From the IMG/VR virus record IMGVR_UViG_2778261693_000009: a stretch of DNA of 13,613 nt. One strand, given 5' to 3'. This document shows positions 1,267-8,391 of this stretch, one piece after another. The DNA is from a virus. Lineage: Duplodnaviria > Heunggongvirae > Uroviricota > Caudoviricetes. The translations under genes and the position numbers were made by a program. The notes below the pieces were generated by a model, which ran no database searches, was not told the DNA's origin, and worked only from the letters and a program-made list of their open reading frames with translations. Every line of letters starts with the position of its first letter. Positions within the stretch are counted from its first letter, which is position 1.

Positions 1267-2541
1267 ATGGCCATTAATGTGCTTTCCCCCAAACAGATAG
1301 AAAACGCCAAGCCGAAGACCAATGATTACAAACTTACCGATGGAGGGAGTTTGTATCTACTGGTACGAAAGACTGGTGGAAAATACTGGCGTATGAATTA
1401 TCGTTTTGATGGAAAACAAGTGACATTGGCATTAGGGGTCTACCCAGATGTCTCACTTGCAACAGCGCGGAAACGGCGTGATGAAGCCAGGCAACTACTA
1501 GCCGATGGTCGTGATCCTCGCGAAGCAAAGAAACCCAAAAAGGAAGACCCAATTTCCCCCACGTTCGAGAGTGTTGCCAGAGAGTGGCATAGTGGAACGA
1601 TGGGGCATCCTGAGTGGAAAGAGATCACCCGTAAAAAAATTCTCCGAGAAATGGAAAACCACCTCTTTCCTGCCATCGGTTCAAAGCCTATCGATACGCT
1701 CAAAACCCGTGACTTGATGCCGATGCTGGTTGAGATGACTGAGAAAGGAATTGGTGCCACAACGAGCCGGGTAAAAACCACTATGACGAGCATCTTCCGT
1801 TATGCCGTGCAACGTGGAATTGTCGATTACAACCCTGCCCACGATCTAAAAGGTGCAATTACGACCCCCAAAGTACGACATCGCCCCGCACTACCTCTCG
1901 AACGTTTACCTGAACTGTTAGCGAAAACGAGAAGTTACACGGGAAGACCATTGACTCGCCTAGCAGTTCTATTTTCCCTGCACACTTTTGTGCGATCCAG
2001 CGAACTACGACATGCCAGATGGGAGGAGATCGACATTGAAAATGGGCTATGGACGATACCAGGACAACGTGAAGAGATCGCAGGGGTTAAATTCTCAGAG
2101 CGGGGTGCAAAGATGGGGGCTGCTCATTATGTCCCGCTATCTAGTCAGGCTATCGGGGTACTGGAGGATATAAGGAAAATCAGTGGTGAATATCTGCTGG
2201 TTTTCCCCGGTGACAGCAACCCATATAAACCGATGAGCGAAAACACAGTTAATAAAGCACTGCGAACGATGGGTTACGACACTCAAAGTGATGTTTGCTT
2301 GCATGGGTTCAGGGCGATGGCCTGCTCTGCACTGACCGAATCAGGACTCTGGTCACGCGATGCAGTTGAACGGCAGATGAGTCACCAAGAAAGAAACGAA
2401 GTGCGGGCAGCATATGTGCATCTTGCGCAGCACATGCAGGAACGCCGCAGAATGATGCAATGGTGGTCTAATTATCTGGAACTAAATAAGGACGAATTTC
2501 ATGCTCCTTATGACTTATCAGGTATTAACATTATCAATTAA
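1267..2541 (+). CDS. P4-type site-specific tyrosine integrase (N-terminal Arm-type DNA-binding domain plus C-terminal catalytic domain)
   Basis: Lies immediately downstream of the tRNA. N-terminus MAINVLSPKQIENAKP...DGGSLYLLVRKTGGKYWRMNYRFDGKQVTLALGVYPDVSLATARKRRDEAR is typical of P4-like integrase arm-binding domains. C-terminal region contains HGFRAMA and RAAYVH (candidate catalytic His/Arg/Tyr) and the tail RRRMMQWW seen in argW-targeting IntS-like integrases. Start is ambiguous: in-frame ATGs at 1207, 1255 and 1267, none with a strong SD. Confidence 0.85.
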   Translation: MAINVLSPKQIENAKPKTNDYKLTDGGSLYLLVRKTGGKYWRMNYRFDGKQVTLALGVYPDVSLATARKRRDEARQLLADGRDPREAKKPKKEDPISPTFESVAREWHSGTMGHPEWKEITRKKILREMENHLFPAIGSKPIDTLKTRDLMPMLVEMTEKGIGATTSRVKTTMTSIFRYAVQRGIVDYNPAHDLKGAITTPKVRHRPALPLERLPELLAKTRSYTGRPLTRLAVLFSLHTFVRSSELRHARWEEIDIENGLWTIPGQREEIAGVKFSERGAKMGAAHYVPLSSQAIGVLEDIRKISGEYLLVFPGDSNPYKPMSENTVNKALRTMGYDTQSDVCLHGFRAMACSALTESGLWSRDAVERQMSHQERNEVRAAYVHLAQHMQERRRMMQWWSNYLELNKDEFHAPYDLSGINIIN

Positions 2542-2571: not shown

Positions 2572-3453
2572 ATGCAGCATTCAAAAGAGAATGAAACTAT
2601 ATTCTTAGGAAATCTATGGATTGACAAAAAAATACCACCATTAGAATATTGTTCATTTGAACGCGCTTCAAGACTATTAGAATGCGAGATTGATGATTTA
2701 TTACACCTATACGAAATAGGCGCTTTTAATATCGCATTCAAGGCGGATGGACTTGCAGTTAGATTTAATGTTAATTTCCTCTATAAAAATCAGAAAATGG
2801 AAATTGACTTAATTCATCCCGTATTAACTAATCAATCACTAGAGATGGAATTTTCAACAATATGGTATGACCTTAAAGATGACTCCTTTGAACATTTTGA
2901 AAATGGGCTTCAAATTATAGGATTTGCCTGTGGTATTTGGTACGCCGATGATATGATAAGTGACATAAAAAATGGATTAGCTATAGATCCAGATTATGAA
3001 TTCAGGCTTAAACCGGTAAAAATACGAGATAATGTTTTGATGGCAACGGCCTCATATGAAGGAAATAAGGTCATTGATATTCCATTTGAAGATCTTCTTA
3101 TCATGCGAAGAGATTTAGAGTTAATATGGAAATCAGTAAAAACTGGAATTCCTATGCCAAGTTTACTTACGAAAAGAATTTCATCTGAACCTAAAATCCC
3201 CAAGCGATTAAATAACACTGCTGAGCATCATGCAAAAAATAGGGAGGGGTTATTAAATGCAGCCATATATATATTAGCAAAATACCCAAGCGAATGTCGT
3301 GGTGAAAGAAAAGAGATAAGTCCTGAAAAGTGGACTAACGCCATAATTAAACATTTAGGAGAGCTACCTCCAATATTTATCACTAATGAACAAGAAATCT
3401 TAAGAAAATTACGATTAGCGGTTAATCATGCGGGATTAAAACAAAAGGGGTAG
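2572..3453 (+). CDS. Hypothetical protein, 293 aa; AT-rich orphan cargo gene directly downstream of int
   Basis: Clean ORF with SD AGAGG 5 nt upstream of the ATG, 30 bp after the int stop. Markedly AT-rich by eye (roughly low-30s percent GC versus over 50 percent in the flanking core genes). No motif I recognise (no P-loop, no obvious nuclease or HTH signature, no hydrophobic segments). Confidence 0.7.
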   Translation: MQHSKENETIFLGNLWIDKKIPPLEYCSFERASRLLECEIDDLLHLYEIGAFNIAFKADGLAVRFNVNFLYKNQKMEIDLIHPVLTNQSLEMEFSTIWYDLKDDSFEHFENGLQIIGFACGIWYADDMISDIKNGLAIDPDYEFRLKPVKIRDNVLMATASYEGNKVIDIPFEDLLIMRRDLELIWKSVKTGIPMPSLLTKRISSEPKIPKRLNNTAEHHAKNREGLLNAAIYILAKYPSECRGERKEISPEKWTNAIIKHLGELPPIFITNEQEILRKLRLAVNHAGLKQKG

Positions 3454-3519
3454 ACTGAAACAATCTACAGGTAGAGTTGATTACACTACCTTCACAGCAT
3501 TTTGATATCCCCATAGTAT

Positions 3520-3547
3520 CTGCCGTGTTCATTACATAACACGGCAG
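3520..3547 (+). promoter_or_regulatory. Perfect 10-bp inverted repeat (CTGCCGTGTT / AACACGGCAG) with an 8-nt spacer, just upstream of alpA
   Basis: Left arm 3520..3529, right arm 3538..3547. The repeat encloses box 1 (TTCATTACATAAC) and its right arm overlaps the weak SD region of alpA (ATG at 3556). No T-run follows, so it is more likely an operator or translational-control hairpin than a terminator. Confidence 0.4.
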
Positions 3548-3555
3548 GTAATTTC

Positions 3556-3771
3556 ATGACATTAAAAACTTATCCTATCACTGGACATGCCCGCCCACGA
3601 GCTACTGCTGACTTTTTGCAAATAAGTACGGTTACTCTCTGGCGCTGGGAAAAGAACAATCCTGAATTTCCCAAATCTATACGCATTTCAAAACGGGTAT
3701 CTGTTTACGATGCACAAGAAATTAGGCAGTGGGTTAAAGCTCAATCAGCAGGATTGGAGGAAGTAGTGTAA
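3556..3771 (+). CDS. alpA: AlpA-family (prophage CP4-57 regulator-like) small DNA-binding regulator/excisionase-type protein
   Basis: 71-aa protein containing FLQISTVTLWRWEKNNPEFPKSIRISKRVSVYDAQEIRQWV, which fits the AlpA/Xis-type winged-helix pattern. Located between int and the replication module as in P4-like elements. Confidence 0.75.
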   Translation: MTLKTYPITGHARPRATADFLQISTVTLWRWEKNNPEFPKSIRISKRVSVYDAQEIRQWVKAQSAGLEEVV

Positions 3772-3790
3772 TGACAATATTAACAAAGCT

Positions 3791-3810
3791 GGGGAGAAAA
3801 AAGCCTCCCC
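3791..3810. terminator. Candidate bidirectional hairpin between convergent alpA and the RHH gene
   Basis: GGGGAG (3791..3796) / CTCCCC (3805..3810) 6-bp stem with an A-rich loop; on the minus strand the loop reads as a T-run. Weak as a terminator. Confidence 0.25.
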
Positions 3811-3820
3811 AACGTATTAA

Positions 3821-4015
3821 TCAATTCTTTGGTTCTAAACCTCGGCTTTGTAACTCTTTGCGTAGAATGCGCTTGATCCAAGCCGCTAGCGATTCATCGC
3901 CATCCTGCTGTTGTGCTTGTTCCATCAGTTCACGCAGTTCAGGGTCAAGTCGGAACTGGAATGGCGGATTCCCACGTCTTTCATTTTTGTGTGTTGACAC
4001 GTCAATTACACCCAT
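3821..4015 (-). CDS. Ribbon-helix-helix (Arc/MetJ-like) small DNA-binding protein, candidate repressor
   Basis: 64-aa protein; FQFRLDPELRELMEQAQQ...SLAAWIKRILRKEL fits a beta-strand then two helices (RHH fold). Transcribed divergently from the replication operon. Weak or absent SD. Confidence 0.55.
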   Translation of the reverse strand: MGVIDVSTHKNERRGNPPFQFRLDPELRELMEQAQQQDGDESLAAWIKRILRKELQSRGLEPKN

Positions 4016-4021
4016 TGTAAT
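3994..4021 (+). promoter_or_regulatory. Candidate sigma70 promoter for the rightward early/replication operon
   Basis: TTGACA at 3994..3999, 16-nt spacer, TGTAAT at 4016..4021. Overlaps the start of the divergent RHH gene and the TGTAATG/CATTACA repeats. Confidence 0.45.
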
Positions 4022-4049
4022 GTATTTATGTGTAATGACACATTACACA
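4003..4049. promoter_or_regulatory. Operator-like cluster of TGTAATG / CATTACA half-sites
   Basis: TGTAATG at 4016..4022 and 4031..4037, inverted CATTACA at 4041..4047, and related AATTACA at 4004..4010; all overlap the candidate promoter between the RHH gene and the rightward operon. Confidence 0.4.
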
Positions 4050-4131
4050 CAGAAAAACAAAATAGCAACGCCCCGGAGTGTTTGCAGCACCACCGAGGCG
4101 TCTGACCAGCACGTTATATGAGGTAACGAAG

Positions 4132-4308
4132 ATGGCTAAACAGAAGTGTACCTGGTTATTTGCGGCGATCAACCGCAGTCAACGTAATGCCCGTCCGGTG
4201 ATGTTAAGGATCACCGCAGATAACGAGCGATCAGCGCGGCGCAGACTTGCCCCGGACTATGTACTGAGCTTTGCCGGGCGCATTCCCTGCGGAGGTGAAC
4301 ATGCGTAA
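4132..4308 (+). CDS. Small protein resembling the Icd-like (host cell division inhibitor) family of P4-like elements; assignment from memory
   Basis: ATG at 4132 preceded by GAGG at 4121..4124. 58-aa product MAKQKCTWLFAAINRSQRNARPVMLRITADNERSARRRLAPDYVLSFAGRIP. Its 3' end overlaps the next ORF by 8 nt. Confidence 0.45.
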   Translation: MAKQKCTWLFAAINRSQRNARPVMLRITADNERSARRRLAPDYVLSFAGRIPCGGEHA

Positions 4309-8052: not shown

Positions 8053-8247
8053 GGTAACAGGTGAAACAGGTGAAACAACCGTATTTTACAGGGCTGAACC
8101 TGTTCCACCTTCTGAAATAGTGAGGTGGAACAGATGTAACGCCAGCCAATCCGCTGTTCCACCTTGTTACCCGCGATGTTCCACCGGTGCAGTGTATATA
8201 AGTGCTTTATAAAACAAAGCTGTAACACATGTTTCACCTGTTCCACC
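8053..8247. repeat. Iteron cluster; candidate replication origin (P4 ori/crr-like) bound by the alpha protein
   Basis: Nine-mer TGTT(C/T)CACC in both orientations: GGTGAAACA at 8060..8068 and 8069..8077 (tandem, period 9, preceded by degenerate GGTAACA); TGTTCCACC at 8101..8109, 8155..8163, 8177..8185, 8239..8247; inverse GGTGGAACA at 8124..8132; TGTTTCACC at 8230..8238. An AT-rich stretch at 8191..8226 lies between clusters. Non-coding and immediately downstream of the primase-helicase gene. Confidence 0.7.
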
Positions 8248-8335: not shown

Positions 8336-8391
8336 TGTGCCAGCCACCACACACTGAGTACCGATAGTGTGCTTGTGTCAGCCACGACACA
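8336..8391 (+). promoter_or_regulatory. Candidate Ogr/Delta-dependent late promoter (two TGT-N12-ACA dyads) upstream of the sid-like gene
   Basis: TGT(8336..8338)-N12-ACA(8351..8353) and TGT(8374..8376)-N12-ACA(8389..8391), both within 90 bp upstream of the ATG at 8426. The first dyad sits about 55 bp upstream of a plausible transcription start. Confidence 0.35.

Follow-up and report, generated by a model that had tools for sequence, protein, structure and literature searches.

A conserved inverted repeat upstream of alpA in P4-like satellites is predicted to fold into an RNA stem over the Shine-Dalgarno sequence

The stretch of DNA analysed here (13,613 nucleotides, the window) is E. coli chromosome carrying yfdC, a tRNA-Arg(CCT) gene at 1009-1081 and then a P4-like satellite with the gene order int, orfX, alpA, Arc-like gene, icd-like gene, DUF5375, Toprim/DUF927 primase, sid-like gene and psu (Table 1). 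The int, orfX and alpA genes lie on the same strand, 30 nt and 102 nt apart respectively, and a search for + strand intrinsic terminators between int and alpA found none. The start of alpA at 3556 is the earliest possible start codon of the ORF and is also the start given in the RefSeq annotation. DNA matches were obtained in 78 of 5426 complete E. coli genomes, chromosomal and single copy in all of them. The close relatives carry little information because most of them are >98% identical.

Table 1 Features of the alpA locus and the neighbouring satellite genes, in window coordinates
Feature	Coordinates	Strand	Description
Integrase (int)	1267..2541	+	Tyrosine integrase with arm-binding domain; co-oriented with alpA
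orfX	2572..3453	+	293 aa, between int and alpA; possible source of read-through into alpA
Predicted sigma-70 promoter	3491..3519	+	TTCACA 3491-3496, 17 nt, TAGTAT 3514-3519
5' arm	3517..3529	+	Core 3520-3529 CTGCCGTGTT, outer pairs 3517-3519; from sequence, fold and covariation
Loop CATTACAT	3530..3537	+	8 nt in the window; 8, 17 or 22-23 nt in relatives
3' arm	3538..3550	+	Core 3538-3547 AACACGGCAG; includes Shine-Dalgarno AGGU 3546-3549
alpA	3556..3771	+	71 aa, AlpA/excisionase-type winged helix-turn-helix; Pfam PF05930, E = 1.6e-7; PHROG 4745 and 66, excisionase/regulator families
G+C-rich hairpin	3788..3813	.	Between convergent alpA (+) and Arc-like ORF (-); -13 kcal/mol, z = -3.0
Arc-like ORF	3821-4015	-	Small; Arc-like/YlcI-YnfO similarity; PHROG 228, E = 8.9e-6
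icd-like gene	4132-4308		Database similarity

The orfX gene was syntenic in all relatives, yet its proteins were 23-53% identical, compared with 74-93% for Int, and the distance of 102-124 nt from the end of orfX to alpA was a constant feature of the stem-carrying clades described below. Searches of orfX against Pfam, NCBIfam, PHROGs, PADLOC and PDB sequences gave no match. The gene encodes a fast-evolving protein adjoining the switch gene; the idea that it is unrelated, swapped cargo was rejected, the orfX proteins being homologous though very diverged. Immediately past the orfX stop lies a stem-loop, GTAGACTGAAACAATCTAC (3450-3468), which is predicted as a terminator on the minus strand only, with the tail CCCTTTTGTT, and which is specific to the upstream region of the window's lineage. 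On the other side of alpA, the G+C-rich hairpin was called a terminator on the - strand; its + strand tail has no clean T-run, and it may also terminate the alpA transcript.

Read 5' to 3', the region before alpA consists of TAGTAT, CTGCCGTGTT, CATTACAT, AACACGGCAG, GTAATTTC and ATG. Direct reading confirmed the perfect 10-bp inverted repeat noted in the first-pass annotation, as well as its exact spacing, with an 8-nt loop between the arms and GTAATTTC (3548-3555) between the 3' arm and the start codon. Three outer RNA pairs (U3519.G3548, A3518-U3549 and U3517-A3550) lengthen the stem to 13 bp. Folding of the alpA leader (3490-3580), a check that the same annotation had proposed, gave -23.5 kcal/mol with z = -5.75, and 0 of 200 shuffles was equally stable; the 13-bp stem has a stability of about -20 kcal/mol. 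The Shine-Dalgarno AGGU, located 7 nt before the ATG when counted from AGG, is paired in this stem.

Taken alone, the repeat is not significant. First-order Markov simulations of the window yielded 0.385 perfect inverted repeats (10 bp or longer, loop of 3-25 nt) per window, and at least one such repeat in 26.5% of simulations; the repeat is significant because it is conserved across homologous leaders, not because it is rare. The view that it is not a simple terminator held: the 3' arm is followed by no T-run, GTAATTTC having just TTT, and terminator prediction on the + strand made no call here. The intrinsic terminator signature of a G+C-rich stem followed by a U-tract was absent, the tail being GUAAUUUC in the window and GUGAAACC in relatives. 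A whole-window Rfam scan with E up to 1 matched nothing over the repeat, and the top overlapping hit of a 701-nt scan, RybB, scored 21.5 bits, short of its gathering score of 40.

Protein-similarity searches of E. coli genomes, species-representative genomes, IMG/VR and metagenomes, made blind to the repeat, supplied relatives of alpA, and the comparison set comprised 20 distinct alpA leaders. An inverted repeat, the conservation of which in homologous elements had been put forward as a check, was present in all 20, as the core of a 13-bp stem. Its 3' arm ends in CAGGU, or in CAGAU in two leaders (L022 and L038, where AGAU replaces AGGU), 5-8 nt before the ATG. In every leader the Shine-Dalgarno tetranucleotide lies inside the 3' arm and is paired in the minimum-free-energy fold, with dG of -9.3 to -22.8 kcal/mol. 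A covariance model built from the alignment found one copy per locus, always immediately 5' of alpA.

Pairing was retained across considerable change in the arms. In the alignment, 89.5% of cells were paired, compared with 25-50% in slid registers, and 13 cells at four pairs were changed on both sides; 0 of 500 shuffles matched the observed paired fraction, the number of doubly changed cells or the covariation score. Compensatory changes included G-C to A-U in L008 (CTGCCATGTT/AACATGGCAG) and C-G to U-A in L014 (CTGCTGTGTT/AACACAGCAG). The register is shifted in L010 and L043, where CTACCTGTC pairs with GACAGGTAG; the inner arms of L006 are remodelled and contain a one-base bulge (CCTGCA-TCC/GGATTGCAGG); and an L006-type stem recurs without the bulge, as a clean 10 bp, in L059 and L061. 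Arm variants with pairing retained thus range over CTGCCGTGTT, CTGCTGTGTT, CTACCTGTC and CCTGCAATC, and pairing holds down to 62-70% AlpA identity despite the differing arm sequences. At core pairs, departures on one side only gave 8 G.U and 3 A.C cells; the outer pair stayed U.G in 18 of 20 leaders and is U-A in the other two; and the + strand folds more stably than the - strand in 14 of 20. The strand bias, small in the G.U versus A.C comparison and drawn from leaders that are related to each other, is no more than suggestive of action as RNA.

A profile search reached AlpA proteins of 42-47% identity, in Yersinia, Acerihabitans and one metagenome (L055, L057, L060). These elements are inserted beside yicC, not argW, and share the order int, orfX, alpA. 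Their leaders contain an unrelated 10-bp repeat, TCCGAYTTGA...TCAAGTMGGA, at the position matching that of the first clade, with compensatory changes of A-U to G-C at one pair and of U.G to C-G at another, and with a 3' arm that runs into GGAG. More distant relatives (L058, L063) had nothing comparable in the leader. Folds of the leaders of CP4-57 alpA (z = 0.71), EcCICFT073 alpA (z = -0.65) and P4 vis (z = 0.02) were not significant, and the covariance model had no match in the P4, CP4-57 or CFT073 loci, including the PICI EcCICFT073. A stem as a general property of alpA genes was therefore rejected, given the unstructured leaders of CP4-57, EcCICFT073 alpA and P4 vis; the element is confined to one or two clades of int-orfX-alpA satellites.

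We propose that the stem occludes the Shine-Dalgarno sequence and blocks alpA translation, a reading that we consider likely. In a full-length leader transcript, 3517-3529 would pair with 3538-3550 and bury AGGU, and 30S subunits would be unable to initiate at the alpA AUG. Since int, orfX and alpA are co-oriented with no + strand intrinsic terminator, transcripts from upstream, if not ended by Rho, would carry the full stem; on those arriving from int-orfX, the message for AlpA, an excision factor or activator, would stay untranslated. The stem, its inclusion of the Shine-Dalgarno sequence, the covariation, the single-copy site before alpA and the lack of an upstream intrinsic terminator are computed features, and from them we infer action in RNA and repression of translation. 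The suggestion in the first-pass annotation that the repeat gives a second control layer on excision is plausible as an inferred role, the part played by AlpA here being drawn from family membership and from other elements (PMC6092414).

Simple Shine-Dalgarno occlusion leaves a conserved loop motif, and its likeness to the alpA start, unaccounted for, and the AGAU of L022 and L038 also counts against it. Within the leader, conservation across lineages is highest in the 5' half of the loop, (C/G/A)AT(T/C)ACA. In the window, the loop region TTCATTACAT (3528-3537) nearly repeats the alpA start region TTCATGACAT (3553-3562), and in L010 and L012 the corresponding sequence is GATTACACAA, present twice. 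The likeness was found in two lineage groups (leaders L004, L008, L010, L012 and L013; p from <0.0005 to 0.015) and was absent from L022, L006, L014, L043 and L045. Since the two lineage groups place it in different registers with respect to the ATG, it is not one inherited duplication. The window contains 7 copies of the motif CATTACA, where 1.7 are expected, some of them near attL/Pint and in two short inverted repeats of the Arc-like/icd-like promoter region.

Further sequence echoes were observed in the attL-int region. A 16-nt block, TAATTTCATGACATTA, matches exactly at 1172-1187 (attL-int) and 3549-3564 (alpA start), and a 13-nt block, TTCATTACATAAC, at 1108-1120 (attL-int) and 3528-3540 (alpA leader). 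The 16-nt block overlaps the -35 of the int promoter (ATGACA 1179-1184, 17 nt, TATAAG 1202-1207). The Pint block is conserved family-wide as a promoter, but in distant relatives it looks less like the alpA start. In the stretch from the int promoter to the int start, TGATGGTAT occurs as a direct repeat (1196-1204 and 1208-1216) and inverted as ATACCATCA (1236-1244); these repeats, conserved family-wide, are probably binding sites for Int or the excision factor.

The inverted repeats in the divergent Arc-like/icd-like promoter region (4005-4047) are ATTACA-N5-TGTAAT and GTGTAAT-N5-ATTACAC (6-7 bp), and relatives have palindromes of their own at the equivalent place: ATGGTAATTACCAT twice in L059, TGGTAGTTACCA and TGGTAACTACCA in L056, and GTGGGCCACACCT twice in the CFT073 PICI. 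As a lineage-specific repressor, the small Arc-like protein could control the replication operon both of these satellites and of EcCICFT073. The loop motif CATTACA as an operator for this protein was not supported: only the window/L002 lineage has it in both the leader and the 4005-4047 repeats, and the palindromes of L059, L056 and CFT073 are missing from their alpA leaders. Just upstream of the icd-like gene, a hairpin at 4069-4108, CGCCCCGG...CCGAGGCG followed by UCUGACCA, is conserved, with compensatory variants (GCCCGAT/ATCGGGC, GCCCGG/CCGGGC and GCCCCGC/GCAGGGC), in L002, L006, L059, L056 and the CFT073 PICI. The location is reminiscent of the P1 c4 and P4 CI immunity RNAs; a comparison with Rfam gave no hit at threshold, the best being traJ_5 at 22.7 bits against 50.

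The same DNA could instead be read as an operator, the other role suggested in the first-pass annotation, in which a dimeric regulator (AlpA, the Arc-like protein, or a host or helper factor) would bind arms spanning the alpA +1 and repress transcription. The repeat begins directly after a good -10 hexamer, which is a classical repressor position, AlpA autoregulates its expression in a related kind of element (PMC6092414), and the enriched loop motif recurs in the Pint/attL and Arc-like/icd-like promoter regions. However, the half-site spacing is not fixed but is 8, 17 or 22-23 nt among homologous leaders, which a loop tolerates and a dimeric operator does not. Half-site sequence is not conserved either: pairing is retained through the register shift and the bulge, and arm sequence varies within one AlpA subclade. 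The 3' arm over the ribosome-binding site is constant in both clades, and all of this favours RNA. Near-matches to the arm (up to 2 mismatches) numbered 19 in the element against 11.4 expected, with no convincing extra copy; the covariance model sees no second copy at any locus; the unrelated repeat of the second clade likewise ends at the Shine-Dalgarno sequence; and the link between the loop motif and the candidate operators of the Arc-like gene is missing in L059, L056 and CFT073. We regard an operator as quite improbable. Of the two possibilities that had been raised, the translation-limiting hairpin was strengthened by the Shine-Dalgarno sequence within the 3' arm in 20 of 20 leaders, the covariation and the second-clade stem, and the operator was weakened by the variable spacing and remodelled arms. 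LexA and CRP boxes, sought by eye, were set aside as their spacings do not fit.

A stem acting in RNA need not act on initiation, and it could be an mRNA-stabilising 5' stem, a site of processing by RNase III or another enzyme, a pause or Rho-dependent attenuation element, or a target whose loop is recognised by a trans-acting RNA or protein. Better conservation of the 5' loop half than of the arms would fit such a role, as would the resemblance of the loop to the alpA start region in two lineage groups, and P4 Vis was reportedly described as RNA-binding by Piazzolla et al. in 2006. Against it, the sole feature common to all clades is the 3' arm over the Shine-Dalgarno sequence, a 13-bp stem is short for RNase III, the stem has no U-tract after it, no credible antisense promoter was found across the leader, and lineages with the GATTACAC loop have no complementary sequence within 4 kb. 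We think this family of roles unlikely. Least probable, to the point that we give it little credence, is an absence of function, whereby a chance palindrome would have been inherited with the alpA cassette and kept perfect at the DNA level. Quasi-palindrome correction by template switching can change both DNA arms in concert without selection at the RNA level, chance alone would yield 0.39 perfect 10-bp repeats per window, and the >98% identity of most close relatives offers little information. Chance inheritance is, however, at odds with pairing that persists to 62-70% AlpA identity with different arms, with the unrelated stem at the same site in the 42-47% clade, and with the coincidence of the 3' arm and the Shine-Dalgarno sequence in every case.

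Two further candidates were rejected. A cis-antisense RNA over the leader, ending at the - strand terminator 3468-3450, would have to start from a best - strand promoter scoring 7.1, compared with 10.6 on the + strand, and is also disfavoured because that terminator is lineage-specific. A leader mini-ORF (xTG TTN ATT ACA ... stop, from arm position 6) is not supported as a coding feature: only 15 of 20 leaders have a start-like codon for it, the first base of that codon changes in step with the opposite arm, and third positions show no excess of substitutions.

Occlusion of the Shine-Dalgarno sequence gains a possible elaboration from the promoter next to the stem. TTCACA-17-TAGTAT is the best promoter-like site near alpA, with a score of 10.6 that ranks within the first 9 sites when both strands of the window are counted. 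Its -10 ends 1 nt before the 5' arm core, and the predicted start (~3525-3528, about 7 nt downstream) lies within the arm. RNA folded from 3526 had no significant structure (z = -0.68), whereas RNA from 3460 kept the stem (z = -3.67). In 4 of 8 independent upstream contexts, the first- or second-ranked sigma-70-like prediction has a -10 that ends exactly 1 nt before the arm, the abutting sites being TTCACA-17-TAGTAT, CTGATA-18-CATCAT/GATTAT with a TGn extension, TTTAAA-17-TAACAT and TTAACT/TTCACT-16-TACCAT; the other four (L006/L007, L012, L014/L045/L050 and L043) have no such prediction.

In the window lineage, the alpA promoter would start transcription inside the 5' arm, giving promoter-proximal transcripts that lack the arm and would be translatable. 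On this model, the stem in the window lineage may serve as a transcript-selective gate like the fold-back inhibition of IS10 and IS50, which we put forward tentatively. Such a gate cannot be general because half of the upstream contexts have no -10 next to the arm, and these contexts would need a different means of opening a very stable stem. A broader version, about which we are rather doubtful, is that the stem and an abutting promoter gate the master switch of one family of P4-like satellites, with the loop as a second recognition site for AlpA or another factor. Constitutive int-orfX read-through RNA would then carry alpA in untranslatable form, transcripts from the alpA-proximal promoter alone would make AlpA, and the region upstream of the promoter, which differs between lineages, may be the helper-sensing part.

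Elsewhere in the element, repeats of CTGTTCCACC(T) in both orientations lie just 3' of the primase gene, at 8100, 8123 (inverted) and 8154, with more near 8178 and 8240; they look like replication-origin iterons, by analogy with P4 ori/crr. Upstream of the sid-like gene (ATG 8426) are two TGT-N12-ACA dyads, TGTGCCAGCCACCACACA (8336-8353) and TGTGTCAGCCACGACACA (8374-8391), whose arrangement would fit a Delta/Ogr-activated late promoter like P4 Psid. A Delta/Ogr-activated promoter of the P_LL type for alpA was rejected, with no TGT-N12-ACA dyad near alpA and the dyads lying upstream of sid.

Proteins of the AlpA family trigger excision, and in Gram-negative PICIs they set off the entire satellite cycle. 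With alpA downstream of a co-oriented int, read-through would risk spontaneous excision, and a stem hiding the Shine-Dalgarno sequence would be a simple means of preventing it. The reading bears on the design of alpA reporters, since transcriptional and translational fusions should differ in behaviour. The kind of cis-regulatory element is familiar, indeed textbook; its place before alpA has not previously been described, and no description of an alpA leader structure was found in the searchable literature. The gain is local knowledge of satellite regulation and no new principle.

Among satellites, the prototype P4 has an AlpA-family gene, vis, that is tightly regulated, with control in the P_LL-vis region and autoregulation by Vis. 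The present element differs in that Vis shows only 23% identity over 30 residues, the vis leader of P4 has no significant fold and no model match, and the gene order here is int, orfX, alpA. The PICI EcCICFT073 resembles it in having co-oriented int and alpA and neighbouring YlcI/YnfO-type and icd-like genes, but the EcCICFT073 alpA leader has a strong unpaired Shine-Dalgarno sequence, z = -0.65 and no model match. In Gram-negative PICIs, alpA serves as master activator and its product stimulates its own expression, while no master repressor is known and the helper signal acting on alpA is unidentified (PMC6092414, PMC11773190). If true, the gate proposed above would be a concrete answer, in one clade, to how alpA is silenced without a known master repressor.

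Beyond satellites, the proposed logic is that of fold-back inhibition. There, the 5' segment of transcripts arriving from outside pairs with the ribosome-binding site, and the element's own promoter starts inside the structure and yields translatable mRNA. Inhibition of read-through transcripts in this manner is said to have been described for IS10 and IS50 by Davis, Simons and Kleckner in 1985 and by Schulz and Reznikoff in 1991. The possible likeness lies in this logic, with a predicted start and a -10 abutting the 5' arm in 4 of 8 upstream contexts. Unlike in IS10 and IS50, the alpA leader would protect a satellite excision factor or activator, read-through would come from the element's own int-orfX, half of the lineages have no abutting -10, and there is no sequence relationship. 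In IS200, a tnpA leader stem was experimentally shown to sequester the Shine-Dalgarno sequence and block 30S binding, keeping expression very low, and IS200 is further guarded by an antisense sRNA and by a terminator placed upstream to counter impinging transcription (PMC4513863). For alpA, no antisense promoter across the leader or upstream + strand terminator was found, and the sequences are unrelated; what the two share is a cis-acting leader stem on the recombination gene of a mobile element, with the Shine-Dalgarno sequence held in its 3' arm.
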